Both the position numbers and the translations under genes were made by a program. Positions 12,369 to 42,087 of a DNA stretch of 52,819 bases are shown here, in pieces (position 1 is the first letter of the stretch; every line of letters starts with the position of its first letter). The notes below the pieces were generated by a model, which did no database searches, was not told the DNA's origin, and saw only the letters and a program-made list of their open reading frames with translations. Source of the stretch: Promethearchaeota archaeon (GTDB taxonomy: Archaea; Asgardarchaeota; Lokiarchaeia; Sigyniarchaeales; SOKP01); assembly GCA_048939015.1 (NCBI GenBank), contig JBHLPW010000037.1, positions 1 to 52,819 of the forward strand. The letters are read 5' to 3'.

Positions 12369-14369
12369 TTAGAAAAGCTTTTTTTTCCAGCTCTCGATAT
12401 CTTCTATGATTTCTTTTTTATCATTTTCGTTTAATAATGTGAGCATTTCTTTATATTTATTTATCGTACTTCTTAGCTTATGTAATGTTACTGAAAATCC
12501 CTTCTTTTCTAGGATTATATTAGCAATATCTTCGAGTTCTTTAGCAAAATCATCTCCTTTTAGATTTCCAAGCTTATCAATTAATCTGTTAAGTCTATAA
12601 TCTATCTCTAATGCTGCTTCATCATCTGCTTTAGGTTGTACCGCTGTTATAAATTCAAGTTTTTCTTGTAGTTTTTGTTTTAAGTCTTCAATTTTGGGCG
12701 AAGAAAAAGAAGTTGCCTGGGTTTCTGTGGGTGAGGATTCCATAGACCTTTGATCCTCTTTAGAAATTTCCTGAATTTGAGTTGGAATGGACACAGGAGA
12801 TACAGGTTCAGATTTTGGTATCTTTTTAATTACTTCTTGTGATTGAAATTTAGTTGGAATAATGGGTTTTGCTGTACTAAAGGATTTCATTGGTTTTGTC
12901 GCAGGACTTATTTGTGTTTTTGATACTTGAGTTGCATGAAATGAATCAGAATATGCTTCTTCCCATATATTTCTTATCAAAGGATCTAACAGTTTTGTTA
13001 ATGGCTCAAAAGAAGTCCTAATACCTATAAAATCTTCCAGAGGATTATCTGAATCTTGGATTACTCCAATTATAAATAAATCATTATCTGCTTTTATAAC
13101 AACGAAATTGTCATTTTGGTAGGTTTTATAAACAATATTCTTAATTTCTTTAAAACTTTTAACTGTACTATTTGTATGAGCTTCTGAAGCAGCTATTTTA
13201 ATTCTTAGATTTCCTGAAAGATTATCAAATTGGTCAACTGCTAAATGATTTTCGAGATGAGGAATTATTATTGTAAGGCTTTCTTTAGAATGCAAAATAA
13301 GATTTTGAATTATTTCATTAATTTTTGTTACACTACTTATTATCCAAACATTAGTAAAGAGTTGTTTATCAACTATACTTATCTTTTGTAAGTAATTATG
13401 CAACACTTTTTCAATAGGTTTATTTAAGTTGGCAATTTCATCAACTGAATGTTGTATAATTGCATCCAAATTTGCAGTAATACTAGTTTCAAACTTATTC
13501 ATAGCAGGTTGCAATCCTTCCTGATTTTCTTTAAGTAGTTCATGAATTCTATTCATTTTAGTCTCAAAGTTATTTAACATGCCAAGTAATAGCATTTTAA
13601 AATCATTTTGATATCGAAATGTCAATTCTATCGTACTTTCCATAGGTTCGGTTGTTTTATTAAACTCTTTTTCTATCAATTCGCGTAGATTATTAGTGAA
13701 CTCTCCTATCATATTTTCGAATTTTTCTTTAAAAGATTGCTCAATAAGCGAAATAATTTCTGGTTTATGACGTTTAAAATCCATAGAATTTATGTTATCT
13801 ATTATTTCAGTCTTAAGAGTGTTAACCGTTTTTATTAAATCAGCAAAATTAGTTTGAATAACACTCTTAATTTTTTGGTTAAGATCAGAAACCTTTTGCT
13901 TAATCTCTTTTAATTCTTCCATTCCTTCAACGAGATCTTCTACTTCTTGTTTTTGAATTATAGAATCTTCATTAATATCTTTTCTAATTTCTTGAAATTC
14001 CTCAATAATACTATCCAACTCAATGGTGGTATTATCTCTAAATAGTTCATTCACTGTATTTATTAGTAATTCCTGAATTGAATGTTTGATATCTTTCAAA
14101 TTTGAGTTAATATTATTATAATAGTTTAATATCGGGAGAATTGGAGGTAAAGTTGAATAGTGAATGATAGTTCCTTGTTTTTCTGAAGTGAGTTTGGCTA
14201 ATAAACCAGCATCTATAAGTTCATTTAAGCTTTTATTGAATTCCTCTGGATTTGCTTTTGGAACAATTGAAAATAATTCATAAAAAGAAAGTGGATATTT
14301 ACCTATTGTTTTAATATATATCTCTATTGCATACTCAGATAGTTTTATTTTTCTTAGAAAGTCATCCAT
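12369..14369 (-). CDS. TrmB-like HTH + long helical/coiled-coil + PLD-like domain protein
   Basis: LSEYAIEIY..LNELIDAGLL..YSTLPP TrmB-type wHTH, about 250 aa amphipathic helices, then WII..SKESLTIIIP effector-like domain and a Pro/Ser linker. Confidence 0.6.
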   Translation of the reverse strand: MDDFLRKIKLSEYAIEIYIKTIGKYPLSFYELFSIVPKANPEEFNKSLNELIDAGLLAKLTSEKQGTIIHYSTLPPILPILNYYNNINSNLKDIKHSIQELLINTVNELFRDNTTIELDSIIEEFQEIRKDINEDSIIQKQEVEDLVEGMEELKEIKQKVSDLNQKIKSVIQTNFADLIKTVNTLKTEIIDNINSMDFKRHKPEIISLIEQSFKEKFENMIGEFTNNLRELIEKEFNKTTEPMESTIELTFRYQNDFKMLLLGMLNNFETKMNRIHELLKENQEGLQPAMNKFETSITANLDAIIQHSVDEIANLNKPIEKVLHNYLQKISIVDKQLFTNVWIISSVTKINEIIQNLILHSKESLTIIIPHLENHLAVDQFDNLSGNLRIKIAASEAHTNSTVKSFKEIKNIVYKTYQNDNFVVIKADNDLFIIGVIQDSDNPLEDFIGIRTSFEPLTKLLDPLIRNIWEEAYSDSFHATQVSKTQISPATKPMKSFSTAKPIIPTKFQSQEVIKKIPKSEPVSPVSIPTQIQEISKEDQRSMESSPTETQATSFSSPKIEDLKQKLQEKLEFITAVQPKADDEAALEIDYRLNRLIDKLGNLKGDDFAKELEDIANIILEKKGFSVTLHKLRSTINKYKEMLTLLNENDKKEIIEDIESWKKKLF

Positions 14370-14430
14370 TCATTCTACACCCACTTAATTCACAGAACTT
14401 TCACTAATTGATATAAAGATATAAATTATG

Positions 14431-14462
14431 TTAATTAATAATATTTTTAATTAATAATATTT
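14431..14462. repeat. Perfect 16-bp direct tandem repeat (TTAATTAATAATATTT x2) in a divergent intergenic region
   Basis: Read directly from the sequence. Confidence 0.8.
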
Positions 14463-14492
14463 TTGATACTAATTGAAATAAAATAAATTAAT

Positions 14493-15818
14493 GTGAGAGA
14501 AATGGCGGAAGATATTTTTTTTTACTTGGATTTAACAAAAGAGATTTTAAAAAAGAAAGAAATCATTAAAACTATTAAATATTACATTGAGGAAAAAAAT
14601 AAAGTAAATACAAAAGCTAATTATTCACTACTTATATTCCAAGAAGAAGGAAACCCTATTTTTATAAACAATAAGAAAGACTCAATTGTCATTTCAAATT
14701 CAATAGAAGAAAATTGGGAGAGCCGTCCAAAAGCACAAAGTTTTTTTGAAAATGGATTATTCTACATTTTTTCATATATTGCAGAGACTGTGAGAAAAAA
14801 ATCCAAGTTTAATAGAATTATAGTGGTCACAGATACACCTTCTGATTTATCATCAGAATATCAAGATGCTTTATTTAATTTAGTGTCGAAGATCAAAAAC
14901 TTTCCAACATTTATAGATATTGTAAGGGTATCTAAAGAAGAACAACGATTTTTTAAAGACGATGTTAAATTAAACGTTTTAGCTTCAGACACCAAGGGAG
15001 GTATATTCTATATCCAAGATAAAAAAGGATTTACGGATGTAATTAAAAAATTAGTAAAAACTAAGCAATTCGTCACTACTTTCACAGATAAATCTGAACT
15101 TGTTAGGATTAGTCAAGAGGATTATGCCTTTTTTAATTATTTAGCAAAGCCGTTAACAAAATCTGGTGAAGAACCTTTAGTGTGTCATTTCTGCAATGAG
15201 TTGATTTGTCCTGTTTGCACCGATGTTCATGATGCTCCAATGATATGTGAAGATTGTAACACAGCGTTTCATCATTGTTGCGTGACAAATTATACTATTA
15301 ATAATAATATTGGTATTCCTAATATCTTTCGATGTCCTTCTTGTGATGTACTTCTAAAAATTGACGAAGATGAGATCATTGAACTACATGAAGAAATTGA
15401 AGGAGAATCCGTCAAAGAATATATGGAAAAAGAAGTGTTGCAAGATTTACCTGAAGAAATCGCCAAAAAGCCAGAAGTTATATTAGAAATTCCTCCTGAA
15501 CCGAAAGTTAAGGTTCCTGTAGAGATACCGGAAAAGGGTTTAAGAGGAGAACAACCAAAAACTATTAGGATTGGAGGTTTTTTTGGAAAAGTCTATAAAG
15601 TGAAAAAGGTAGGCGACAAGATAGTTTATGAAAGAGCTACGAAAACATTACAAGTTAAATCTAGGTCCCGAGAAGAAGATCTATTAATTCCTAAAGATAC
15701 AGTTTCGCTCTCACATGAAAAAGAAGCAAAAAAGCCGAGTTTCATAATTTGTTCTCAATGTGGAACTCAAAATAATGCACACCAAAGGTCATGTTCCAAT
15801 TGTGGGAGCAGATTATGA
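14493..15818 (+). CDS. vWA-like domain + PHD/RINGv-type zinc finger + C-terminal zinc ribbon (paralogue 1)
   Basis: FFYLDL..IIVVTD..IDIVRV..LASDTKGGIFY vWA pattern; CPVC-x9-CEDC-x4-H-x2-C-x17-CPSC; GGFFG; CSQC..CSNC. Confidence 0.65.
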   Translation: MREMAEDIFFYLDLTKEILKKKEIIKTIKYYIEEKNKVNTKANYSLLIFQEEGNPIFINNKKDSIVISNSIEENWESRPKAQSFFENGLFYIFSYIAETVRKKSKFNRIIVVTDTPSDLSSEYQDALFNLVSKIKNFPTFIDIVRVSKEEQRFFKDDVKLNVLASDTKGGIFYIQDKKGFTDVIKKLVKTKQFVTTFTDKSELVRISQEDYAFFNYLAKPLTKSGEEPLVCHFCNELICPVCTDVHDAPMICEDCNTAFHHCCVTNYTINNNIGIPNIFRCPSCDVLLKIDEDEIIELHEEIEGESVKEYMEKEVLQDLPEEIAKKPEVILEIPPEPKVKVPVEIPEKGLRGEQPKTIRIGGFFGKVYKVKKVGDKIVYERATKTLQVKSRSREEDLLIPKDTVSLSHEKEAKKPSFIICSQCGTQNNAHQRSCSNCGSRL

Positions 15819-15985
15819 TATTGCTTAGGATTCTAAGTTCTATAATATTTCTATAATATTATCTCTTATTAAAAACGAAGAAAATCACAAAATTGTTAAA
15901 AGAAAAATAAATGAATTTAGTTATACAATAAAAATAAATAAAACTTATGTTATTATTCTTTTAAAGTTCCACGATTGATGCTAAA

Positions 15986-17308
15986 ATGTTACCAAGATCT
16001 AATGCTGTGAATTCTGAAGAGTTTATTTTTTACATAGATTTAATTTCTGATTTCTTAAAGAAAAAATCCCTACAAAAGGCAATTAATGCTTTTATCAAAG
16101 AAAAAGATAAATACAATGCACTAACTTCTTATGGAATAGTATTATTTCAGAGAAATGAGAATCCTATAAATGTTTATGATTTAAAAGATGCTGATATGGT
16201 AATAAATACTATAGAAGATGCGTGGGAAACTCGGGAAAATGAAAGAAGTTATTTGGAAAATGGATTGTATGAAATTCTTGCATATATTTTTAGAAAAAGT
16301 CGTGAAAAAAGAAAAAATTATCGTGTAATAATTATTTCTGATACTCCAAGTAAGTTATCTGAGGATTATTATAATGCTTTATATGATTTATTGATTAAAG
16401 CGAAAAAATTTTCAACCTTTATTGATATAATCAGAGTAGGCGAAGAAAAATTCTACGAAGATGACGTAAAACTAAAAGTTATTTCGAGTGAAACTCATGG
16501 AGGTACCTTTTATTGCCCCAATGAGAAATTACTTCAAAATATTTTGGGATCTTTAACTCAAAACAAGAAAGAATTTAAAATTATTAAATCTGATGAAACT
16601 GAAGAAATTTTAAGCGAGGATCAGATTTTTTATGAGCGATTAGCGGTAGATCTCATTAGTCTTTCTTCTGAAGAACAAGAAATATGTGATATTTGTGAAC
16701 AAGAGCTGTGTCCTATTTGTGAAGCACACAGTGATGAGATACATAAGTGTTTTAATTGTAACGCAAAATATCATAGTTGTTGCGCCGCGAAATATTCTTT
16801 AGCAAAAAATATTGGCTTTCGACATATATTTAGATGTATTAACTGTCAAACACTTTTGAAATTAGATGAAGACTTTGTAAATATGATATATGAGGAGGAT
16901 CTAGAAGAAGAATTACCTGAAATAGAATTACGTGAACCAATTATAGAGCCAATAGAAGAAGAATTAAATGAAGAACCACTAATAGAGGAACCCGAGATTG
17001 AAGAAGAGGTCATAGAAGAAGAAAAGGAGGTGGCTGAGACACTAGAACCTGCACCGACAACCGAAATAAAGAAAGTAAAACTTGGAGGATTTTTTGGCCA
17101 AGAAATAACAATTTCAAAAAAAGGCGTAAAAAAAGATATTAAAGCAGATATTCCAGAAGTCATCGAAGCTTCTGAAGAACAAATTTCAATAACAACATTA
17201 AAACCACCCAAAAAAAGAGGAACGTCAACAATACGATTGTGCAAAATTTGTGGAGCGACCATAAAAAACACACCAATTTGTCCTAGTTGTGGTGCAAGGG
17301 TTTTGTAG
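15986..17308 (+). CDS. vWA-like domain + PHD/RINGv-type zinc finger + C-terminal zinc ribbon (paralogue 2)
   Basis: Colinear with the upstream gene (ENGL, SDTPS, DDVKL, GGFFG); CPIC-x9-CFNC-x4-H-x2-C-x17-CINC; acidic linker; CKIC..CPSC. Confidence 0.65.
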   Translation: MLPRSNAVNSEEFIFYIDLISDFLKKKSLQKAINAFIKEKDKYNALTSYGIVLFQRNENPINVYDLKDADMVINTIEDAWETRENERSYLENGLYEILAYIFRKSREKRKNYRVIIISDTPSKLSEDYYNALYDLLIKAKKFSTFIDIIRVGEEKFYEDDVKLKVISSETHGGTFYCPNEKLLQNILGSLTQNKKEFKIIKSDETEEILSEDQIFYERLAVDLISLSSEEQEICDICEQELCPICEAHSDEIHKCFNCNAKYHSCCAAKYSLAKNIGFRHIFRCINCQTLLKLDEDFVNMIYEEDLEEELPEIELREPIIEPIEEELNEEPLIEEPEIEEEVIEEEKEVAETLEPAPTTEIKKVKLGGFFGQEITISKKGVKKDIKADIPEVIEASEEQISITTLKPPKKRGTSTIRLCKICGATIKNTPICPSCGARVL

Positions 17309-17367
17309 AGACATTAGTTCCTCAAAATCTTGTAATAGATAATTGTTAAAATCTCAATCTAATCTTT

Positions 17368-17916
17368 TTACAATTTTAAATTCTCTACCAGAATTACTCC
17401 CGAAATGTTTGTCTCTTTCACAGCTATAAAATCTTTCTCCATTTGTTTGGCATAATGCTTTAATAGAAGCAAGATCTGGTCAATTTTTTCTTTATGAAAA
17501 TCTAACATACTTATATTGCATACTTTTTCCGAATCTTGGTTTATAAAATGAATATCGTATCTAACAAATGGCTTAAAATCAAGTTTTCTCATTCTAATTT
17601 CAATTCTATCTAACTCAGGCCATGTTATCATAAAAAGAGGGTGATTAGGTAATAGGAATTGAATTTCCTCTGTTGATATTGAGAATTTTCTGATCTTTCC
17701 AGGATTTTTTGTAAAAATATACGAATAATATACCAAAAAAACACCAATTATAATAAGGCTTATATACAAACTAACGTAAGATTCAGGAAATAAAAACATT
17801 AAAATTATATTAATAAACGCTACAATAAAGATTATAATCAAACTAACCGAACAAGGGATTGAAACTTTGTTTAATTTCTCTCCGGAAAAATCAATTACAC
17901 TGTCTTCAAAAGACAT
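17368..17916 (-). CDS. Hypothetical membrane protein (2 TM + soluble, possibly PH-like domain)
   Basis: Two N-terminal hydrophobic helices followed by a beta-rich domain (ITWPELDRIEI). Confidence 0.6.
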   Translation of the reverse strand: MSFEDSVIDFSGEKLNKVSIPCSVSLIIIFIVAFINIILMFLFPESYVSLYISLIIIGVFLVYYSYIFTKNPGKIRKFSISTEEIQFLLPNHPLFMITWPELDRIEIRMRKLDFKPFVRYDIHFINQDSEKVCNISMLDFHKEKIDQILLLLKHYAKQMEKDFIAVKETNISGVILVENLKL

Positions 17917-18058
17917 AAACTTTCATTAATTAATTTTACATATAAACTTTAACTAAAAATTAGGAATTAGTTTTGATATTGGAGAAATTCGGAATAACCT
18001 AAAAATTTTAATGTTTTAGTTGCTAATTAAAATTACATAATAACCTATATAGATTGAT

Positions 18059-19399
18059 ATGTTTATAAAAGAAGAAATAAGTACTTTTAAAAAAAATAGA
18101 CCAAAAACAAGAGATATTTGGGAAAAAGCTCTAAAATTTCTGCCAGGTGGGATTTCTCATAATATACGTACCTTTGGACTGCCAATAATTGGAGCTTTCC
18201 CTATTTTTATTAAATCTGCTCATGGTCCTCATCTAATAGATATTGATGATATCAAATATATAGATTGTTGGAATGGGCATTTTGCTATGATACTAGGACA
18301 TAATCCTCCCGAAGTGCAAGAAGTTATAAAAAATTATCTGAATTATGGATGGCATTTTGGTACAAATACAGAATATCAAGTTGAGTTAGCAGAAAACATT
18401 GTAAAAAGAAATCCAGGAATCGAAAAAATGCGTTTCTGCACAAGTGGGACAGAAGCTACAATGTATGCTACTAGGCTGGCACGAGCGTTTACTAAGAAAA
18501 GATTGATTGCTAAGGCAGGATTAGGATGGCATGGTGCTAATGATACACTTTATTATGCGGTTGGAAGCTTAAATAGTGAAACATTTTCTCCTGGACTTCA
18601 AACTCCAAGGGATGCTGGAATAATAACTTTCGAAATCAACGATGAAAAAATATATGATATAGTTAAAAAAAATAAAGATGAATTAGCAGCCATAATTTTA
18701 GAGCCGATTTTAGGAGGAGGAGGTGGATTTCCAGTCGAAAAACAGTTCTTAAAAAAATTAAGAGAAGAAACTGAACGGTACAATATTCTGCTAATATTTG
18801 ATGAAGTAATTACTGGATATCGCTTTACTAATGCTTTATTTCAGAATGAAATAGATGTATTACCCGATTTAACCACGATGGGGAAAATTATAGGTGGAGG
18901 TATGCCAATAGGTGCTGTTGGAGGAAAAAGAGAAATTATTGAACAATCTAGTCCTGATGCAGAGAATCAAGTTTTAATAGGAGGGGGAACATTTTCAGGA
19001 TATCCATTGAGTATGATTGCAGGATTGAAAACATTAGAAATACTGAATGGGCGGCAAGAAGACTACATTCGAATAAATCAAGAAGGTGACAAATTATTAA
19101 ATAATCTTAACCAATTATTCAGCGAGGAAAAATTACCATTTATGGCCATTGGACATAAATCTATGATTATGCTTCATGCACTTTCAAAATGGATTGAAAA
19201 CCCTTCAATGAGACAAATTATTGAATTTAAAGATAAAAAACGAGAAGCACTTATTCAATTAGCACTCTTTAATAGAAATAATTCAGGTTTACATGGTTTG
19301 GGTTCTATTTCAATGGCTCATACTCATGATCACGTACGAAAAATTCAAGAAGTTATCAGAGAGATTGCAATTCCCGTCGCTCAATCCAAATTTGATTGA
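18059..19399 (+). CDS. Class III PLP aminotransferase, glutamate-1-semialdehyde aminomutase-like
   Basis: LPGGISH, ILGHN, RFCTSGTEATM, LIFDEVITGYR, TTMGKIIGGGMP (PLP Lys), GTFSG. Confidence 0.9.
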   Translation: MFIKEEISTFKKNRPKTRDIWEKALKFLPGGISHNIRTFGLPIIGAFPIFIKSAHGPHLIDIDDIKYIDCWNGHFAMILGHNPPEVQEVIKNYLNYGWHFGTNTEYQVELAENIVKRNPGIEKMRFCTSGTEATMYATRLARAFTKKRLIAKAGLGWHGANDTLYYAVGSLNSETFSPGLQTPRDAGIITFEINDEKIYDIVKKNKDELAAIILEPILGGGGGFPVEKQFLKKLREETERYNILLIFDEVITGYRFTNALFQNEIDVLPDLTTMGKIIGGGMPIGAVGGKREIIEQSSPDAENQVLIGGGTFSGYPLSMIAGLKTLEILNGRQEDYIRINQEGDKLLNNLNQLFSEEKLPFMAIGHKSMIMLHALSKWIENPSMRQIIEFKDKKREALIQLALFNRNNSGLHGLGSISMAHTHDHVRKIQEVIREIAIPVAQSKFD

Positions 19400-19466
19400 A
19401 ATTTTCATAAAAAATAAAGGAAATTTACAATTTTTGAAAAATATCAGTATTACTATTATTTGAAAA

Positions 19467-20501
19467 GTGAGTTTTTTGAGAAAGAAGTTTAATGTTATAC
19501 AAGTGGGATTAGGTCCTATGGGGATAATAATATCAAACCTTCTAGTTAAACGTGAAAATGTTCGGTTAATCGGTGCCGTAGATATTAATCCAAAGCTTGT
19601 AAATAAAAATTTAAGTGAATTCATTGAAATAAAAGATAAATCTGATGTTGTCATTCAGTCCACGTTAGAAAATGTCTATTCTGAAGAGAAAGTCGACGTT
19701 ATAATTATTGCTACATCATCTTCGCTAGAAAAAGTTGCTCCATTAATTAAACAAGCAGTTAAATCTGGAAGCAGTGTTATTTCTATTTGTGAGGAATTAT
19801 CATACCCTTTTCAACATTATCCAGAACTTTCTAAAGAACTAGATGAATTAGCAAAATCTTATAATGTATCTATAGTTGGAACTGGGATTAATCCAGGTTA
19901 TCTTATGGATTTATTACCAATTGTTGTCACAGCAGCTTGTCAGGAAGTAAGTTCACTTAAAGTAACGAGAATGATGAATTCAGCAAAAAGAAGAGAACCT
20001 TTTCAACGTAAAATAGGTACAGGGTTGACTACTGAAGAATTTCATAAAAAAATAAGTCAAAAGGAAATCACGGGTCATGTTGGTCTAACACAATCAATCC
20101 AAATGATTGTAGCAGCATTAGGTCTTGAATATGATGAGATTATAGAATTCCCCCCTAAAGAAATAATTACTGATAAAGAATTTACTACCTCTTATGGGGA
20201 GCAAATTCCAAAAGGATATGTCTGTGGTTTACAAAGTATAGCTATAGCTAAAAAGAGAGAAAAAGATATAATTTTCTTAGATTTTACAGCCTATGCTGGA
20301 AAACATGAAGAATTTGATAGTGTAGAAATAGAAGGCATTCCCAACATACACCAAAAAATTATTGGTGGAGTTCACGGGGATATCGGAACAGCTGCAATGG
20401 TGGTTAATTTGATTCCTAAACTAATAGAAGCTAAACCAGGTTTACTAACAATGAAAGATCTTCCCGTAGCATGTTATACGGAATATATATGGAAAACCTA
20501 A
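19467..20501 (+). CDS. 2,4-diaminopentanoate dehydrogenase (Ord)-like NAD(P)-dependent amine dehydrogenase (DapB-like N-terminus)
   Basis: QVGLGPMG Rossmann motif, VISICEELSYP, GTGINPGYLMD, GHVGL, GDIGTAA..KPGLLTM. Confidence 0.8.
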   Translation: MSFLRKKFNVIQVGLGPMGIIISNLLVKRENVRLIGAVDINPKLVNKNLSEFIEIKDKSDVVIQSTLENVYSEEKVDVIIIATSSSLEKVAPLIKQAVKSGSSVISICEELSYPFQHYPELSKELDELAKSYNVSIVGTGINPGYLMDLLPIVVTAACQEVSSLKVTRMMNSAKRREPFQRKIGTGLTTEEFHKKISQKEITGHVGLTQSIQMIVAALGLEYDEIIEFPPKEIITDKEFTTSYGEQIPKGYVCGLQSIAIAKKREKDIIFLDFTAYAGKHEEFDSVEIEGIPNIHQKIIGGVHGDIGTAAMVVNLIPKLIEAKPGLLTMKDLPVACYTEYIWKT

Positions 20502-23800: not shown

Positions 23801-26217
23801 ATAGTTCAACAATCTCGGGTAATACTATATATGATAATACTTATAGAGGTATAAGATTAGAACATTCAAATAATATTGATGTAACAGGTAACAATGTATA
23901 CAGCAATGATGAAGATGGAATATTATCTTATTGGTGTGATAATATTGAGATTTCAGGAAACACCGCAAATAACAACAATTGGCATGGGATAATTTTAGAC
24001 AATACGGATGGTAATGTAGTAATGAGAAATACTTTCAATAACAACAATGAACGTGGGATTTGGATAGAAAATTGCGCTAATACGGAGGTCATTGGGAATA
24101 TTTTAAATGGTAATTCTGGGGGTACTTATTATGAAAGTGGTTCAAACAATGAATTTTTAGCAAATCTAGCTAACGGTTATATAAATCCTATTGTTTTTGA
24201 TGATAGCGGAGGAGGAGATTTTACTTGGACAGAAGCTACTAGTCAAATAGCTTGGTTCAGTGGTTCAGGTACTGGTGCTGATCCTTATATTATTGAAAAT
24301 ATAATTATCAATGCTCAAGGTTCTGGTAGTTGCATTGAGATAATAGGCTCTAATGATTATCTTATTATAAGAAACAGTAAATTTACCAATTCTGGGAGTG
24401 GAACTCTACCACATGATGCAGGAATTAGAATGGAATCTGTTACTGGTATAACCGAATTAAATAATGTGAATTGTTCAAATAATGGAGCTGATGGAATATA
24501 TCTACTATCCTGTTCTAGTATTACTATAAAGGATAGTACAATAAATAACAATGATTTAAATGGGATTGCGTTATACAATAGTGGTTATAATTATATTGAA
24601 GATAATGATAATACTATTAATTATAATGAGGCTAGTGGGATTTACTTAAGCGCAGCGCATAATAATGAGATTGATGGAAATACGATAAATTATAATGGAT
24701 ACGGTATTTTTGTTGATGGTTCCATGTACAATAATATAGATAACAACGATTTAAGATATAATATCGGTGGAGGATATAAAGAAATTGGTGATAGTTCTGG
24801 TAATATCTTTGGTCCAGGTAATATCCTTGATCCTGTATCAGATAATATGTTTTGGATAATCATTATAATCATAGCATGCATAATTGCTTTAGTAGCAATC
24901 ACTATTGTGGTAGTTTTAAAGAAAAGATCAGCTGTTCCTAAGAAGGTAAAGGAAAAGAAACCTGAGATTTCATTAGAAGAAAGGACAGCGATGACAATTT
25001 TAAAAGAAGAGAAGCGAAAAGAAAAACAAAAACTAAAAATGGAAGAAAAGGGAAGAAAAGTAGAGGCTGAACTCCTAAAAAGAATGTCAACTGTTGATTT
25101 TCTAATAAAGGAAGATAAATTTGAAATCGCACTTAAAAGTTTAGTTAGAATAAAAGAAGAAGCGCAAACTCATAGAATCGCAGACATTACAACTAAAGCT
25201 GAAGAACGTATAGATTTATGTAAAAAATTAGGGGAGGAAAGGAAAGAACAAGAAAGAATAATAGAAGAAGAAAGATTACGAGAGGAAAAACAAAAAGAAG
25301 AGGAGAAATTAGAAAAAGAAAGATTAAAAGAAGAAGAACGAAGAAAGAAGGAAAAACTAAAAGAAGAGGAGAGATTGAAGGAAGAAAGGCAACGAACCTT
25401 AGAAAAAGAAGCGAAAATTAAGGAAGAATTTGAAAAGAGAATAGCAAATGTAGAATACTTTATTAAAGAAAATAAAACAGAAATGGCTATTAAAGTATTA
25501 CTTAAGATTCAAGAAGAGGCTCAAGCTCAAGGCTTTGAAGATATTGTGAATAGTGCAGAAGAAAAATTAATTGAATACAAAAAATTACAACTAGAAACTG
25601 TTAATCGAATTAAGCAGACAATTTTAACCTTAGGGGCGAAATTTACTCGTCTACAGCTCCTTGATATAAGTGAGAAAAGCGGTATTCAAGATGAAGCTCT
25701 GATTGAGAACATTATTCATGAGATGATCAGAAATAAAGAAATTTCTGGCGAATATTTTGAGAGTTCGAAAGCGCTTGCGTTGGAAGCAGCAGCACCTGTG
25801 AAAATAGAGGAAAGCGTAGGGAAACATAATGTCTTTATTAGTTATTCTACTTTAGATACAGATTACTTTCAGGTCTCAAAAATTGTACGTCGATTAGAAC
25901 TATATCCCGAAATAAATCAAGTTTTGTTCTGGGAAGTCGATAGTAAACAAAATATTGTAGAATTTATGGAAGAGACTCTTAGAAAGACTAACGCGTTTAT
26001 ATTATTTTGTTCTGAACATTCTATAAAGTCCCAAGCCGTAAAAGGTGAATGGATGTCAGCTTATCAAATGCTTAAAAAAGGATTGATGAAAATCATTCCT
26101 GTATATGAAGATGAAGACCATATTCCTAGATTGTTATGGCAAATGCTAAATGTAAAATATACGAAAGATGACTTCGAAGGATTTATCCAAAAACTTTATG
26201 AAGAAATCATAAGATAA
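20845..26217 (+). CDS. Predicted membrane receptor: signal/TM - SBP family 5 - NosD-like beta-helix modules - TM - helical/coiled-coil - PCI-like wH - TIR
   Basis: IDP..VCEGL..PNLA, LRTGVTFHDG, VGTGPF, GWGPDFNDP (SBP5). GSGTxxDPY-capped PbH1 repeats. TM MFWIIIIIIACIIALVAITIVVVL-KKR. HNVFISYS..FILFCS..AVKGEW TIR. ORF track start is TTG 20800. Confidence 0.85.
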   Translation: MNSHLKNNNRKNKKKCYPFGILHNLKKSRIRLLVLFAIFLFSIIFIIDSPINFNSKPEDSQTPTEKNLELSNEGDNIFKFKLAISNNPVTIDPHNVWDVNSGCVIDQVCEGLYMYNISDPNYPIIPNLAIANGSWSVDNLNYTVPLRTGVTFHDGFGFKAIDVKQSFNRLQYFINASGNLPSNTSIAVMESLYKFLDGTPIINRTEVISDYSVRFVLNRPYGPFQALLCYYSSYIISTNSTPKYSYISPSTGDLVGTGPFVYDGGTAGEEIRFHAFDNYWNGKPDIELLYFKIMGYDRNDAILNGSIDYITSFDISMLSDFNANPDVKVVDNDNDLAIYYLCMNNQKINKTFRQVISYSINYSYITDNAQQGFAERAKSPVPPGISYSNWSNNYAIYNVTKAREIMQSMGFGIGWDTTFPGTSEANWASANFVSYNFSYWTGSSFHTDLYTLLNDNLEKVGVDVIDGGTSYEWYLTIFYGTNPGGYNDIDLMYTGWGPDFNDPSNMINPLFSNNSAANRGLTNDPYLQTLMEQGLNETEPSLRKVIYNEIQKYLVEDLMPVAFLYVQRNFDVYRNYILGYQSNKWEKIWLHGVTQNSSLAPQKININGNQEWTYFKNAGKCTGSGTYSDPYVIADLLIDANGFSNGILIKNTTVFFRIENCTVYNSGNGTDDAGIKLQLVSNGRLINNNASYNHRFGILLYYNYNTTVSGNSANNNDDTGIYLQNSNNNTVSGNSANNNILNGIYLIFSNNTKVVGNLLNGNGVYSYFDSDGSNNVFTWNVINGFAYPFNIDDTGGGDFTWAQAIDQLAWVTGSGTYSDPYIIKDLIIGGANSSSCIFIENSNVHSKIENCRVFDSSATWPYAGIQLFNVSNCQIVDNNCSNNNGRGITLANCNNNTVNGNTLYLNGDHGIGLYSSNNTVISGNTAYYNNYDGISIYLSTMNTLSGNNAYDNNYDGIRIWKSNNSSISTNTIYSNTQNGISLWKSNSSTISGNTIYDNTYRGIRLEHSNNIDVTGNNVYSNDEDGILSYWCDNIEISGNTANNNNWHGIILDNTDGNVVMRNTFNNNNERGIWIENCANTEVIGNILNGNSGGTYYESGSNNEFLANLANGYINPIVFDDSGGGDFTWTEATSQIAWFSGSGTGADPYIIENIIINAQGSGSCIEIIGSNDYLIIRNSKFTNSGSGTLPHDAGIRMESVTGITELNNVNCSNNGADGIYLLSCSSITIKDSTINNNDLNGIALYNSGYNYIEDNDNTINYNEASGIYLSAAHNNEIDGNTINYNGYGIFVDGSMYNNIDNNDLRYNIGGGYKEIGDSSGNIFGPGNILDPVSDNMFWIIIIIIACIIALVAITIVVVLKKRSAVPKKVKEKKPEISLEERTAMTILKEEKRKEKQKLKMEEKGRKVEAELLKRMSTVDFLIKEDKFEIALKSLVRIKEEAQTHRIADITTKAEERIDLCKKLGEERKEQERIIEEERLREEKQKEEEKLEKERLKEEERRKKEKLKEEERLKEERQRTLEKEAKIKEEFEKRIANVEYFIKENKTEMAIKVLLKIQEEAQAQGFEDIVNSAEEKLIEYKKLQLETVNRIKQTILTLGAKFTRLQLLDISEKSGIQDEALIENIIHEMIRNKEISGEYFESSKALALEAAAPVKIEESVGKHNVFISYSTLDTDYFQVSKIVRRLELYPEINQVLFWEVDSKQNIVEFMEETLRKTNAFILFCSEHSIKSQAVKGEWMSAYQMLKKGLMKIIPVYEDEDHIPRLLWQMLNVKYTKDDFEGFIQKLYEEIIR

Positions 26218-31600: not shown

Positions 31601-32710
31601 CACAATGAAATATCTGGGATAGTATTAATTGATAGTACTAATATCCATATCATTTTTAATACAGAAACAATAAATTCTAATGAGCTTTATGGTATTCATC
31701 TATTTAATAGTCATTATAATAATATTACAGGTAATACGATAAACTATAATGAAATAGGAATATTCCTTGAATCATCTAACTACAATTTAGTTGACTTGAA
31801 TAATTTATTATATAATGGTCAATCACATTTAGATAATGGTATTGGAAACGATATTACACTTAATAATATTTTTCCAGAGATCTCTGGGAGATTTCCTTTT
31901 GATCTTTTAATTATTATTCTAATAATCTGTTTAGTAGTTGCGGGAGTAGTAGGTGCAGTTATAATAGTCAAGAAGAGAACATCTACATCTGGAATGAAGA
32001 AAAAGGAAATAAGTGATAAGAAAAGGCAAAAAGTAAGAAGAAAACTCGAAGCTAAATTAATTTTTGTTGATGAACTTATAGAAGAAAGAAATATCAAATC
32101 AGCTTATAAATATTTAGGTAAAATACAAGATACTGCAGATATGCATGACTTTTTTGATATCTTTAATTCTGCAACAAAAAAAATTGAAGATTGTAAGAAT
32201 ATTCAACAAGGAATTTATGAAGAAGTTAAAAGAGCATCAATAATTACTCCCGTAGTACCAAAAACCTTAGAAGAAGAACAGATTACCGCTATATCTGAAA
32301 CAGCAGAAACACCAAAACACAATATATTTATCAGTTATTCTACTATAGATTCAGAACATTTTCAAATAAATAAAATTGTAAAAAAACTTAAAAAATACTC
32401 TGATATTGATAAAGTCCTATATTGGGAAAAAGACAGTAAAGAAAATATCGTTGAATTTATGGATAGAACTCTGCAAGAAAGTGATGTTTTTATTTTATTT
32501 TGCAGTGAAAGATCAATTCAATCTGCAGCTGTAAGTGATGAATGGCAGGCAGCATTTCAACGTAGAAAAAAAGGGTTAATTAAAATGATTCCAGTTTATG
32601 AAGATGAAAAACATATTCCTCCCATTCTTGGGCATTTATTAAATGTAAAATACACAAAATTCGATTTCGATACCTTTATTGAAAAACTTCATAGAGAAAT
32701 TTTAAGGTGA
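28619..32710 (+). CDS. Predicted membrane receptor: signal/TM - type I PBP (Venus flytrap) - 4 FN3-like repeats - beta-helix - TM - helical - TIR
   Basis: IRIGLL..GAFLAAKEINEAGGI..YFFRVMP..AYEAVYML (LIV-BP family). Four F-x-L-x-W..ADxYSxY..G-x-YYF-x-V-x-A-x-N repeats. TM LLIIILIICLVVAGVVGAVIIV-KKR. TIR HNIFISYS..AVSDEW. Alternative start ATG 28649. Confidence 0.85.
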   Translation: MFITLLDGEKMKSKKLTFIILLILILFQSIIGLINFNLNSGQKSEVEKVVPEISDIIVGNYTFPGYSGSVDLNNSIRIGLLHDKNNVLGDHNWKGAFLAAKEINEAGGIIINSTAFKVGLVAEDTNENNETLDVSKGLDAANRVISYDPHCIIGGYRNESLSAYLELIMNAKIPFLSTGVAQDEFCQNVLNNYAKYKYFFRVMPYNSTNIGIETINHYLWQIFVLNNSYSGWLKNVTILRENLTWSVGLSNALQQILPIYANFLNPITEINISTSITYSEMEDIWEQINASKAQLVIPIFSSNASINVSKAYAAVQPKCLMMGIDIKSQINDFWDNTEGTCQYEAVFQAVYNISKTSKTMPFWNNFVNEYNIEPYYTGIGAYEAVYMLANVSKTSQSLKPNDIISGLEGFDKDNPFIGPSNRKAFWGSHDLVYGYPYAYGLWCQWQLDGKKVVIHSDNNYPGSIPTGSLSLPYWGIHDLTVAQDIPEPFTLSSNAGKPDSDGSFDLTWTNSNGADSYSVYMYNKNISYVSKRFALKSYKDVSSPFPISGLRTGDYYFIVAAYNGTGERLSNNIYAEVDNRPGIFTLSKDADFPVDTNGSFNLTWSDSDGADNYSIYRYNRSITEINESLTIEADQTATSPFPITGLLDGKYYFVAVAYNGTGERLSNIVNVTVDRPGPGSFTLDTDADAPDKDGTFNLNWTASKNADNYSIYRYNRFITEINGSLTIEANQTATSPFPITGLSTGNYYFVVVAYNETGETLSNNVNVTVGIPPGQFTLSSDAVTPFDIDGIFNLNWTESAGADNYSIYQFSSYITHINDSLIPLMIATTNKSFQITDLPTGFYYFIVVANNSFGYRLSNCINVSVQIYNNLTGYWIINPLLIDNTGTGDYTWQEVVIFPWCSGSGTLVDPYVVAFININGLNLNNCLTIRNSNVYFRVINCIFYNSSDNVNDGGIKLISTSNGDLIQNNCSFNNANGIVVDSCNNILIRDSSINHNEISGIVLIDSTNIHIIFNTETINSNELYGIHLFNSHYNNITGNTINYNEIGIFLESSNYNLVDLNNLLYNGQSHLDNGIGNDITLNNIFPEISGRFPFDLLIIILIICLVVAGVVGAVIIVKKRTSTSGMKKKEISDKKRQKVRRKLEAKLIFVDELIEERNIKSAYKYLGKIQDTADMHDFFDIFNSATKKIEDCKNIQQGIYEEVKRASIITPVVPKTLEEEQITAISETAETPKHNIFISYSTIDSEHFQINKIVKKLKKYSDIDKVLYWEKDSKENIVEFMDRTLQESDVFILFCSERSIQSAAVSDEWQAAFQRRKKGLIKMIPVYEDEKHIPPILGHLLNVKYTKFDFDTFIEKLHREILR
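30070..31220 (+). repeat. Four tandem FN3-like coding repeats of about 290 bp
   Basis: Near-identical DNA at 30452 and 30740 (period 288 nt). Confidence 0.8.
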
Positions 32711-39436: not shown

Positions 39437-40630
39437 TTAATTACCAAACTTTCTTTCTAAAATATCTTCCAATAATTCAACTAGTTTGATTGAAGGAATA
39501 TCCAATAGTGTTATTTCTAAATGTCTTCCTCGAGTAGCTTCTTCAATACGTACAGTCTTGGAAGCTATAATCTTTAAAGTAGTAAGTTGGCGAACATATT
39601 TCCTAAAACTCATCTTAACATGAGGTTCAATAGAATAATTCTCACAAATTGCATTATATTCTTCAAATGCATCATCTACTAAAGTAAAAGGTTCTTCAGT
39701 ATTAATTAAGGATCGAGTTATCCCGTATAACGCTAAAAGCTCTTGATCTTTTAATTGATCAACAATATCATTTCTGAAAGTAGGATACACGTCATTTGAT
39801 GCTTCTCTAATAATATCTGCTGTAATTCGATCGAGACCTTCTTTATCGCAGAATGAGCCACTTTTTCTTAAGATTTCAATACCATGTCTCATGTTTTTAT
39901 GCTCAGTTACGATTTGCGATACCATTGTTAGAAGTTCTTCATTTACAACGTTTTCTTTAAATGCCAAATCACTTCTATATTCTAAGATTTTCATCGATTC
40001 ATCAAAATCATAAGGTTTAAGTTTAATTTTTTCATTTATTCTGCTTAATATTCTTTCATTTTCAATTTTCATCCAATCTTTACTTCTAGAAATTAACAGT
40101 AAGGATAATTTTGCATTTTGATGCCCAAATGTTTCAGCAATGTCTAAAAACGCAAGTACATCATCTTGTTTTAAAAGATGAATTTCATCAATAATTAAAA
40201 GCATGTAACCTTTTTCCCGAATTAATTGTGAAAGAATTAACTTTAAAGCTTCATCATCTGAGAAACCACGACCGCTACCATGTTGGTATTTAGCCAATAA
40301 CTCTCTAATAATCTTGCTTTTGGATCGGAAATTAATACAATTAAAATACTCTAAAAATAATTTGATATCTTTTTCAATCGCTATAGTTCTAAAATTTTTC
40401 CCAAAATACCGTGCTGTACATGTTTTTCCAACACCTCCTTTCCCTAGGACTAAACAATTAACAGACGGTTGTTCTTTTTCATCAACAATTCTTCTAAAAT
40501 TAAAAATTAACGTTTTTAAAGCATCATCACGGCAATATAACTTTTCAGGTACGTAACTTAAATCTAGAGAACTCGCTTGTCTAAAAACTGATTTTTTCAT
40601 GAATTGTTTTCTGAATTCATCTTCGTCCAT
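39437..40630 (-). CDS. cdc6: Orc1/Cdc6 replication initiator
   Basis: LSYVPEKL..R, Walker A GKGGVGKT, YFNC, Walker B IIDEIH, PY..IL..R, C-terminal winged helix. Confidence 0.92.
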   Translation of the reverse strand: MDEDEFRKQFMKKSVFRQASSLDLSYVPEKLYCRDDALKTLIFNFRRIVDEKEQPSVNCLVLGKGGVGKTCTARYFGKNFRTIAIEKDIKLFLEYFNCINFRSKSKIIRELLAKYQHGSGRGFSDDEALKLILSQLIREKGYMLLIIDEIHLLKQDDVLAFLDIAETFGHQNAKLSLLLISRSKDWMKIENERILSRINEKIKLKPYDFDESMKILEYRSDLAFKENVVNEELLTMVSQIVTEHKNMRHGIEILRKSGSFCDKEGLDRITADIIREASNDVYPTFRNDIVDQLKDQELLALYGITRSLINTEEPFTLVDDAFEEYNAICENYSIEPHVKMSFRKYVRQLTTLKIIASKTVRIEEATRGRHLEITLLDIPSIKLVELLEDILERKFGN

Positions 40631-40996
40631 GGCAAATCGATAAATTCTGATTTAAAATTTTGAATAATATGTATTAAAAGATCAATCTAAGTATAAATTT
40701 TCTTATACTACCTAAATCATATTTCTTCTATAAAAAATTTTTTAGTCAAAAAATTAATTTACGACAAAAATTTGTTCAGATTATTGAGACGTTGCATCAT
40801 TAAACAAAAAAGCTTTAACATAAATACACAATGTTTTATAAGAAATTATCAAATTAAGGATTTATACAAAAGAAAACAAGATTTATCTTTGTTTATAATT
40901 AATCGTGATATTTATACAAATATTAATCTTCTTAACAGATTTTTATATAATTTGAATACTATCTTATTCTGAAATACTAAATAGGAAATTCTAATT

Positions 40997-41134
40997 ATGA
41001 TGAAATTTATTCGTAAGAAATTAAATCGAAAATACAAAAAAGAAGAATTAATTAAACGATATGAAGAACAGAAATTAGCGCTTGATAATGGTATCAAAAG
41101 AAATCAATCTGTTTGTGGCGGTTTAGGTCATTAG
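40997..41134 (+). CDS. Possible 45-aa small protein (MMKFIRKKLNRK..VCGGLGH)
   Basis: ATG..TAG ORF translated by hand, below the ORF-track cutoff; AGGA about 10 nt upstream. Confidence 0.3.
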   Translation: MMKFIRKKLNRKYKKEELIKRYEEQKLALDNGIKRNQSVCGGLGH

Positions 41135-41163
41135 AGATTACTTATTAAAAGAATATATTTTAT

Positions 41164-42087
41164 TTACAACTTTTCTAAATTATTTAAGGGATGCATCTGA
41201 GAATAGGACTCTTTTAACTTAGTTATATCATTTTTGGCATAAATACGGGTAGTATTTGGGCTTGAATGTCCTAAAATATCTTGTAATTCACTAATATCCA
41301 TGCCAGAGCGTCTTAGATGAGTTGCTCCAGTGTGTCTGAACACATGCGGGGTAATTACCTTAGAAGTAGCAAACCCACATTTTTCTTTAATTGTTTTAAT
41401 GTCTGTCTGTACAACTCGGGGACTTAATTGTTGGTTCCTAGTATTAACTAACAAAAAATCTTCAGAATCATAAATTATCCTATTTTTAAGATTTTCTTCA
41501 AAAATTTCTAATGTTTTCTGATCCACAGGTACAATTCTCTCTTTATTTCCTTTTCCTCGAAGTCTGATATAACCTCTCTCAAAATCTATATCTCTAATTT
41601 TTATGTTACATAATTCACTTACTCTGGCCATAGTAGAATACAATAATCTGATAATTAAATAATATCTACTGCTTCTACGAGAGTTGAACAATTTCCGGTC
41701 TTTCAATTTTTTAAAAATTTCTTCCATATCGGAGATTCTTAGAAATTTCGGTAAACTTTCTTCAAGTTTAATTTTAGGAGTTTTAATTGTACTCATAGGA
41801 TCTTTTTCCATAAACTCATTTAAAGTTAAAAATTTAAAATATGAACGAAGAGAAGCGATTTTTCTCCCAATCCCCTTTTTAGTATAATCTAAATCATTTA
41901 ATTTCTTTAAAAATAAACGTATTTTTTGGCGTAGTAGGGGAGAATTAATTTGTAAGTCCCCTACAAGCTCGATAAATTTCTGAAGATCATAATGGTATGC
42001 CTTAATAGTGGAGGAAGCACATCCTTCTTCAACTTCTTTCGCAATCAAAAAATCCTCAATAAAATCGGAAATTTTGTAGTTTTCCAT
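41164..42087 (-). CDS. xerA: XerA/XerC-type tyrosine recombinase
   Basis: SAM-like N-terminus (TIKAY..DL), ARVSEL, GKGNKER, TPHVFRH, LGHSSPNTTRIY. Confidence 0.9.
   Translation of the reverse strand: MENYKISDFIEDFLIAKEVEEGCASSTIKAYHYDLQKFIELVGDLQINSPLLRQKIRLFLKKLNDLDYTKKGIGRKIASLRSYFKFLTLNEFMEKDPMSTIKTPKIKLEESLPKFLRISDMEEIFKKLKDRKLFNSRRSSRYYLIIRLLYSTMARVSELCNIKIRDIDFERGYIRLRGKGNKERIVPVDQKTLEIFEENLKNRIIYDSEDFLLVNTRNQQLSPRVVQTDIKTIKEKCGFATSKVITPHVFRHTGATHLRRSGMDISELQDILGHSSPNTTRIYAKNDITKLKESYSQMHPLNNLEKL

Follow-up and report, generated by a model that had tools for sequence, protein, structure and literature searches.

The window analysed here, a stretch of 52,819 nucleotides from a Promethearchaeota archaeon (contig JBHLPW010000037.1 of assembly GCA_048939015.1, positions 1 to 52,819), encodes two large predicted membrane receptors, receptor 1 and receptor 2, and we found that the C-terminal TIR domains of both carry the glutamate of NAD+-cleaving TIR enzymes and lack the aromatic residue that accompanies it in every known TIR with a cyclic product. 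In bacteria and plants TIR domains are known from soluble enzymes of immunity, and in animals from the tails of receptors. Enzyme-type signalling by these receptor tails is plausible from their sequence, and the more specific proposal, that they are NAD+-cleaving but non-cyclising TIRs that generate a signal, is one that we favour tentatively, at a little less than even confidence. If true, a large archaeal family, from the prokaryotes most closely related to eukaryotes, would combine membrane receptors with a TIR of enzyme type, which would bear on the organisation of TIR signalling before animals, and the family would offer a tractable test of receptor clustering as the switch for TIR chemistry.

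In the mechanism that we propose, one Asgard-restricted TIR subfamily, which keeps the residues of the NAD+-cleavage pocket (the glutamate, a serine six positions earlier and an S-Y-S-T-x-D loop after strand A), would serve many surface proteins of exchangeable ectodomains as their shared output in the cytoplasm. An active site of the NAD+ glycohydrolase type would form upon receptor clustering, catalysis would yield non-cyclic ADP-ribose (ADPR) or an ADPR adduct, and a single TRPM-type SLOG protein would be the most likely reader in the genome, acting in trans for the window receptors.

A preliminary description of this DNA, made from its letters, had placed a catalytic-type glutamate in both tails, within the motifs SQAVKGEW and SAAVSDEW. 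Both motifs were confirmed where it had put them (Table 1), with E1750 in receptor 1 and E1308 in receptor 2, inside TIR_2 domains well above threshold. Positions 25822-26217 of the window encode the last 131 residues of receptor 1 (KHNVFISYS...EEIIR*). Using the curated cut-off of 28 bits for Pfam TIR_2 (PF13676), receptor 1 scored 52.3 bits as whole protein and 57.9 bits as excised tail and receptor 2 scored 58.1 and 63.0 bits, respectively, with both tails covering positions 1-121 of the 122 in the profile. The two TIR domains are identical at 81 of 133 residues in an ungapped alignment. Pfam ThsB_TIR matched the excised tails weakly (22.0 and 23.6 bits, cut-off 21.2), and the NCBIfam models gave no meaningful match with either of them.

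Comparisons with solved structures were made with two profiles, for which representatives were picked for short length from a set of 150 described below. Profile A1 contained 26 sequences of the receptor-TIR family (18 representatives and eight stretches from the window and compared loci), and profile A2 contained 11 divergent TIRs (four representatives and seven such stretches), some of them from elsewhere in this genome and one from Methanobrevibacter. A single sequence gave marginal PDB matches only (9m0n, 0.52; CRISPR-associated TIR 1, Cat1, 1.3). With A1, the TIR-TPR protein 9m0n_A was matched at 1.2e-06 and Cat1 at 4.5e-04, and with A2 there were 65 distinct sequences at E ≤ 1, headed by Cat1 (5.7e-11), 7uxr (1.5e-10), 9m0n (1e-08), PdTIR (3h16, 1.8e-07) and AbTir (7uwg, 3e-07), the last two being reached only with this mixed profile. 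No mention of the 9M0N TIR-TPR protein was found in the literature searched.

In the A2 alignment the family glutamate (E1750) fell on E74 of Cat1 and on the glutamate of the AbTir motif WTNYE, which we infer to be E208 since W204, T205, Y207 and E208 of AbTir fit that motif. The invariant family serine S1744, six residues ahead of the glutamate, fell on S68 of Cat1, and the S-Y-S-T after strand A on its residues S7-H8-N9-N10; only three columns of the alignment were invariant, S9, E78 and A82, with the glutamate among them. The alpha-C position used by NADase TIRs, to which the preliminary description had assigned the glutamate, is thus supported by profile alignment with two enzymes. The NADase site of Cat1 is lined by S7, H8, N9, N10, D33, S68 and E74 (PMC12162218), with the N10A, D33A, S68A and E74A mutants being defective and E74A and S68A dead in vivo (PMC12162218), and AbTir E208A is inactive (Manik et al. 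preprint). Hurieva et al. used as a catalytic criterion that the glutamate C-alpha lies within 3 Å of that of ThsB E85 in superposition. The tryptophan directly following the family glutamate, W1751, was also considered as a shifted form of the WxxxE tryptophan, and was ruled out as an alignment shift, by which Phe or Tyr would take the place of the catalytic glutamate; it may have a compensating role in three dimensions.

A family search among 1.84 billion representatives gave 675 proteins at E ≤ 0.001, with 439 at ≤ 1e-10 and 122 at ≤ 1e-30. Conservation was counted over 158 rows, namely the query together with 157 domain copies from the best 150 of the 675 proteins, after exclusion of four of the 161 phmmer stretches that covered fewer than 100 query positions. 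S1744 was kept in 157 of the rows, D1686 in 156, S1681 and E1750 in 154 each, Y1682 in 153 and W1751 in 150, and the four copies without the glutamate carried V, V, Q and D. The glutamate is hence among the most constrained positions of the domain, alongside the other equivalents of the Cat1 pocket. As for the context of the domain, the TIR ended at most 12 residues from the C-terminus in 135 of the 150 representatives, with at least one strongly hydrophobic segment ahead of it in 84, many of the others being fragments.

The position four residues ahead of the glutamate (Glu-4) is alanine in both window proteins (A1746 and A1304), with A1746 aligning with W204 of AbTir, and among the 158 copies it was Ala in 94, Ser in 45, Pro in nine, another non-aromatic residue in 10 and aromatic in none. 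Elsewhere in this genome, two soluble TIR proteins (L032 and L034) have Trp at Glu-4 and the most divergent receptor-type paralogue (L037) has Phe, and the Methanobrevibacter TIR has Tyr; the non-aromatic residue characterises the receptor subfamily rather than the organism. The motif in AbTir, SARM1 and plant TIRs is WxxxE, the W204A mutation of AbTir lowers the share of 2'cADPR (a cyclic ADPR, cADPR, isomer) in its product from 93% to 24%, and the cyclic-product TIRs of a functional set had W, Y or F at Glu-4 in 12 cases of 12 (Manik et al. preprint). This aromatic requirement is restated in PMC11374754, and the tryptophan is also reported to be essential in one type II ThsB2 (2026 preprint). 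With no aromatic residue in any of the 158 copies, a cADPR isomer, which the preliminary description had named as a product to look for, is disfavoured, and if the tails are active, then their product is more likely to be non-cyclic ADPR together with nicotinamide, or an ADPR adduct. The missing aromatic residue thereby gives a testable product prediction, that of ADPR rather than cADPR isomers.

A candidate receiver of such a product was encoded elsewhere in the genome. Across the genome, the LSDAT_prok profile (TRPM-type SLOG) matched only C21:33294-33755, scoring 32.9 bits (cut-off 25.4), in a protein also having RelA_SpoT and TPR domains (Table 1). Its gene shares a strand with the gene of a paralogous membrane TIR protein (L033, C21:35843-37900) and is located 567 bp downstream of it; the L033 TIR is 67% identical to that of receptor 1 and also has Ala at Glu-4. 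Close orthologues of the SLOG protein (identity of 48% or more across 570 or more residues) were found in 10 other sampled genomes, and in seven of these a family TIR gene lay within 1 kb of the SLOG gene (G189, G279, G276, G177, G071, G147 and G330, with the pair being convergent in G147). In G207 the distance was 2.5 kb, and for G255 and G219 the TIR side is cut off by the contig end. There was no counter-example to the pairing among the 10 genomes, but these genomes are kin. More distant SLOG homologues of 671 residues (36-39% identity) were not linked to a TIR gene where this could be compared (G246 and G258), and those of G171 share a contig with four TIR genes, at distances of 8-18 kb. 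ADPR is reported to bind human TRPM2's SLOG domain, which the SLOG domain of ThsA resembles (Ofir et al. preprint), and non-cyclic ADPR as the product would suit a SLOG reader of TRPM type.

The preliminary description had also seen no Thoeris-like effector nearby. This holds for the window, where the neighbouring genes scanned with Pfam (12369-20498 and 26287-48667) included no ThsA-type effector (SIR2-SLOG or transmembrane-Macro), but a candidate reader is encoded beside the paralogous TIR gene on contig C21. Searches of the genome with the STALD (PF18185) and LSDAT_euk profiles gave no match, but the control was equally silent for each of them. The Macro profile matched two small open reading frames (ORFs) of the genome, and neither SIR2_2 nor Macro had any match near the window. 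Six large ORFs (714-1836 residues) carry SIR2_2, at C77:47296-47646, C24:5218-5571, C113:5750-6136, C12:150184-150567, C21:131188-131571 and C43:88395-88757, and that on C24 lies about 3.5 kb from one small Macro-domain ORF (C24:9027-9362).

Taken together, the complete chain would be an outside-in nucleotide signalling pathway of Loki-type Asgard archaea, in which varied ligand-binding heads are coupled to a shared enzymatic TIR, NAD+ is turned into a non-cyclic ADPR-type signal, and a TRPM-type SLOG sensor, fused to a RelA/SpoT-like nucleotidyltransferase, picks this up and adds an alarmone-like second wave. As a whole we regard this pathway as decidedly unlikely; were it true, a prokaryote would have TIR signalling coupled to receptors, with the ADPR-SLOG pair that animal TRPM2 also uses.

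Several observations weigh against an enzymatic function of the tails and against the relay. The Trp at Glu-4 aids NAD+ binding and activity in SARM1, L6, ROQ1 and AbTir (Manik et al. preprint), and it is this activity-supporting residue that is replaced by Ala in the window TIRs. The BB-loop mutant G174A of AbTir is inactive (Manik et al. preprint), and the residue aligned with G174 is Lys in both window proteins (G in 67 and K in 46 of the 158 copies), where the alignment is uncertain since the stretch from strand B to the BB loop is four residues shorter than in Cat1, AbTir, PdTIR and 7uxr. Cyclic product was obtained in E. coli from only 25 (12 + 4 + 9) of 154 glutamate-bearing eukaryotic TIRs (2026 Sorek laboratory preprint), and none of the PADLOC defence-TIR models matched either window tail at E ≤ 0.01. 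With regards to the relay, the SLOG gene is on another contig than the window receptors and is not linked to them, the kinship of the pairing genomes makes their counts non-independent, and many TIR-bearing genomes had no SLOG match with the query used (TIR 19/27 and SLOG 6/41 in genus g4).

The strongest alternative, which we consider somewhat unlikely, is that the tails are assembly modules without catalysis, with TIR-TIR contacts, possibly together with winged-helix contacts, clustering the receptors or recruiting for example a neighbouring leucine-rich repeat (LRR) and PCI-like protein, as TLR/IL-1R tails do. The glutamate itself is weak evidence in this regard; it is necessary and raises the odds of catalysis, but is far from sufficient. 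The preliminary description had regarded animal TLR TIRs as scaffolds, but this contrast is weaker than it had put it: a WxxxE motif with the glutamate is conserved in TLR1, 2, 4, 6 and 10 (PMC6974880; PMC10641520), and although most TLR/IL-1R TIRs lack the glutamate, some TLR TIRs bearing it, including that of human TLR4, are reported to make cADPR (2026 Sorek laboratory preprint). A Box-1-like FISYS and the alpha-C glutamate are kept also in TLR TIRs having little or no enzymatic activity (PMC6974880), and this, together with the loss of the aromatic Glu-4 and of the BB-loop Gly, would suit an assembly role. The same can be said of the eight paralogues in this genome, whose tails (59-87% identical, 33% for L011/L037) would permit mixed arrays, and of soluble proteins with two to four tandem TIRs, found in eight of the 150 representatives, all from other metagenomes (P0003, P0007, P0012, P0017, P0094, P0097, P0108 and P0135). 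In three related loci (L012, L013 and L014) the LRR-PCI gene adjoins the receptor, and in receptor 1 the TIR comes after a PCI-like winged helix. Against an assembly role stands that the best conserved polar positions are exactly those of the Cat1 pocket, that one group of orthologues has a SLOG nucleotide sensor as its close gene partner, that this genome has no soluble protein with a receptor-subtype TIR, and that the C-terminal half of the LRR-PCI protein is single-copy and not beside the other six paralogues. The tandem-TIR proteins could be adaptors or pre-assembled active sites; P0017 carries four TIRs in tandem, and in P0108 the glutamate is gone from the second copy.

A role in defence, with the receptors sensing viruses or foreign cells and the TIR draining NAD+ so that the cell is arrested, as for Cat1, SPARTA and TIR-STING, seems to us improbable. 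The nearest solved relatives by sequence are indeed Cat1 and the TIR-TPR protein 9m0n, the ectodomains are variable, the gene copy number varies from 0 to 11 with presence or absence differing within one genus, and a non-cyclising TIR would fit plain NAD+ hydrolysis (Manik et al. preprint). However, the receptor genes have housekeeping neighbours and the tails no PADLOC match, the ectodomains are solute-binding domains of nutrient type, and eight suicide switches mounted on solute binders would be costly. Least probable, and to us very improbable, is an enzymatic TIR with another substrate, which might for example strip NAD-capped RNA of its nicotinamide or produce 2',3'-cyclic nucleotides (2',3'-cNMP) from nucleic acid: NAD-RNA decapping has been reported for TIRs of bacteria and for one archaeal TIR (PMC10937652) and a Trp of the L7 TIR contacts 2',3'-cAMP (Manik et al. 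preprint), so that TIR chemistry is wider than NAD+ hydrolysis, and with the same glutamate used on other substrates this reading cannot be separated from NAD+ cleavage by sequence, but locus and family give no pointer to RNA or DNA.

Returning to NAD+ cleavage as the favoured reading, the family can be set beside four known systems. Cat1 (PDB 9mud, 9mue and 9muo) is its best solved sequence relative, with the glutamate, the serine and the loop after strand A aligning with the mutation-tested pocket, and its active site is formed between stacked TIRs through ligand-driven assembly. As a soluble type III CRISPR effector with a CARF-TIR architecture and Trp at Glu-4 (KSDWCWDE), it differs from the window proteins, which are predicted to span the membrane once and have Ala at that position and a shorter stretch from strand B to the BB loop. 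The WxxxE-type NADase TIRs AbTir, PdTIR and BtpA belong to the same Pfam TIR_2 family, with E208 of AbTir aligning with the family glutamate, and AbTir has a coiled coil ahead of its TIR, as has receptor 1. AbTir needs W204 for cyclisation and has G174 in its BB loop, whereas the window proteins have Ala and Lys there. The likeness to Thoeris lies in the pairing of a TIR gene with a SLOG-domain gene in this and related genomes, and in that several TIR genes could feed one reader. Unlike in Thoeris, the window tails have no PADLOC ThsA/ThsB match, the TIR is a membrane receptor tail, and the Asgard SLOG is of TRPM type (LSDAT_prok), fused to RelA/SpoT-like and TPR domains rather than to SIR2 or Macro, and unlinked to the window genes. 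With TLR/IL-1R receptors, finally, the window proteins share an ectodomain, one predicted membrane helix and a TIR predicted to be cytoplasmic, in addition to the alpha-C glutamate of some TLRs, but their ectodomains are SBP_bac_5 or Peripla_BP_6, fn3-like and beta-helix domains and not LRR or immunoglobulin domains, and their TIRs lack both the Pro-Gly BB loop, the BB region reading W-E-x-D-S-K-x-N-I, and a Trp-x-Cys before the glutamate. TLR chains were weak matches of profile A2 (1e-05 to 3e-02). As the family is restricted to Asgard archaea, its TLR-like layout most likely arose independently.

The features of both receptors, together with the adjacent LRR-PCI gene and the candidate reader, are listed in Table 1. 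Receptor 1 scored 195 bits for SBP_bac_5, 252 bits for Beta_helix and 52.3 bits for TIR_2 with Pfam, whereas its PCI match of 16.7 bits was under the cut-off of 22. Further to the membrane-spanning segments of the table, N-terminal hydrophobic segments start at residue 43 in receptor 1 and residue 13 in receptor 2. An N-terminal and one further internal hydrophobic segment each, the latter followed by KK or KKR, would place the TIR in the cytoplasm as far as hydropathy predicts, and both receptors are consistent with a type I one-pass topology with the TIR inside the cell.

Table 1. Features of the two TIR receptors, the gene between them and the candidate SLOG reader. Positions are those of the window unless a contig (C) or locus (L) is given.
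Feature	Position	Strand	Details
Receptor 1 gene, 1805 aa	20800..26217	+	SBP_bac_5 head, beta-helix/NosD stalk, one transmembrane helix, coiled coil, PCI-like winged helix, C-terminal TIR
Predicted membrane-spanning segment, receptor 1	24832..24888	+	Kyte-Doolittle, 19-aa window from aa 1345, then KK
TIR_2 domain, receptor 1 (aa 1678-1798)	25831..26196	+	Pfam; 58 bits in genome scan
SQAVKGEW, single occurrence, aa 1744-1751	26029..26052	+	S1744, A1746, E1750 (codon GAA 26047-26049), W1751
LRR + PCI-like winged-helix protein, 717 aa	26287..28440	-	Between the receptors, convergent with receptor 1; Pfam
Receptor 2 gene, 1363 aa	28619..32710	+	Peripla_BP_6 head, FN3-like repeats, NosD/beta-helix, one transmembrane helix, C-terminal TIR; Pfam
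Predicted membrane-spanning segment, receptor 2	31880..31936	+	Kyte-Doolittle, 19-aa window from aa 1088, then KKR
TIR_2 domain, receptor 2 (aa 1236-1356)	32324..32689	+	Pfam; 63 bits in genome scan
SAAVSDEW, single occurrence, aa 1302-1309	32522..32545	+	S1302, A1304, E1308 (codon 32540-32542), W1309
RelA_SpoT + TPR + LSDAT_prok protein, 856 aa	C21:32709-35276 = L047:2710-5277	-	Pfam: RelA_SpoT 36.5 bits (cut-off 27), LSDAT_prok 29 bits

The source genome (4.86 Mb in 125 contigs, 94.9% complete, with the window as its contig C6) had 11 TIR_2 matches, eight of which were of the receptor subtype and located at the C-terminus of large or membrane proteins. The seven paralogous TIRs were 61, 87, 65, 63, 60, 59 and 33% identical to that of receptor 1, the last value being that of L011/L037, and no soluble protein with a receptor-type TIR was found in the genome, all eight copies being in separate large or membrane ORFs. 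Three of the paralogous TIR-tailed membrane proteins (686, about 1231 and 2187 residues) are encoded within 30 kb of each other at C21:35843-65607, which together with the two in the window suggests that genes were duplicated locally and that ectodomains were swapped while a single tail was conserved. The three other TIR proteins of the genome matched PADLOC defence models (PDC-S66, AbiTii, Aga_TIR and ThsB). Two soluble proteins, L032 (C43:2334-3308, minus strand, an AbiTii fusion) and L034 (C116:12296-13783, plus strand), both matched PDC-S66, have the canonical W-x-x-x-E and resemble standard TIRs of defence rather than the receptor subtype.

Metagenome-assembled genomes (MAGs) labelled Promethearchaeota, Thorarchaeota and Hermodarchaeota contained the closest public relatives of the tail, which marks the source as an Asgard archaeon of Loki type, and 43 of 301 sampled genomes of the phylum carried the subtype (E ≤ 1e-15), with 36 of 68 in the family to which the source genome belongs. 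Copy number ranged from 0 to 11 per genome, and presence or absence differed within one genus. Judging from these sequences, the receptor-TIR family is restricted to Asgard lineages and is multi-copy. In one related genome two matches of the subtype are broken by stop codons (G276:C15:38651-38959 by two TAA and G276:C41:11765-11980 by one TAG); these copies are probably decaying, which fits gene turnover in the family. Proteins of 292 residues from Methanobrevibacter MAGs (L026-L028), sharing 33% identity with the window TIR across roughly 80 residues, have an N-terminal TIR (Y-x-x-x-E) followed by hydrophobic C-terminal segments, a topology that is the reverse of that of the Asgard receptors. 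The family appears to be undescribed, as no description of it was found in the literature on TIR domains, NADases or receptors of Asgard archaea or Lokiarchaeota that was covered, which left subscription journals outside. In the available parts of PMC11291487 TIR appears solely in the names of two DefenseFinder systems, and those of PMC11249213 and 10.1101/2024.10.26.620412 gave no description of the family.

Within the window, which has a G+C content of 30%, both receptors are flanked by housekeeping genes, encoding according to Pfam an aminotransferase, a DAP-dehydrogenase-like protein, PHO4, a PhoU-like protein, adenylosuccinate synthetase and others. The LRR-PCI protein encoded between the receptors was considered as an obligate receptor partner and was ruled out as a general rule, with its single-copy C-terminal half facing eight TIR paralogues and with its gene absent from locus L015, where the receptor is present and PHO4 comes directly after it. 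Further downstream, at 39437-42087 on the minus strand, an Orc1/Cdc6 gene, one of the archaeal genes in the window, adjoins a phage-type integrase (XerC/D-like), and this may be an origin region or else the edge of an integrated element.

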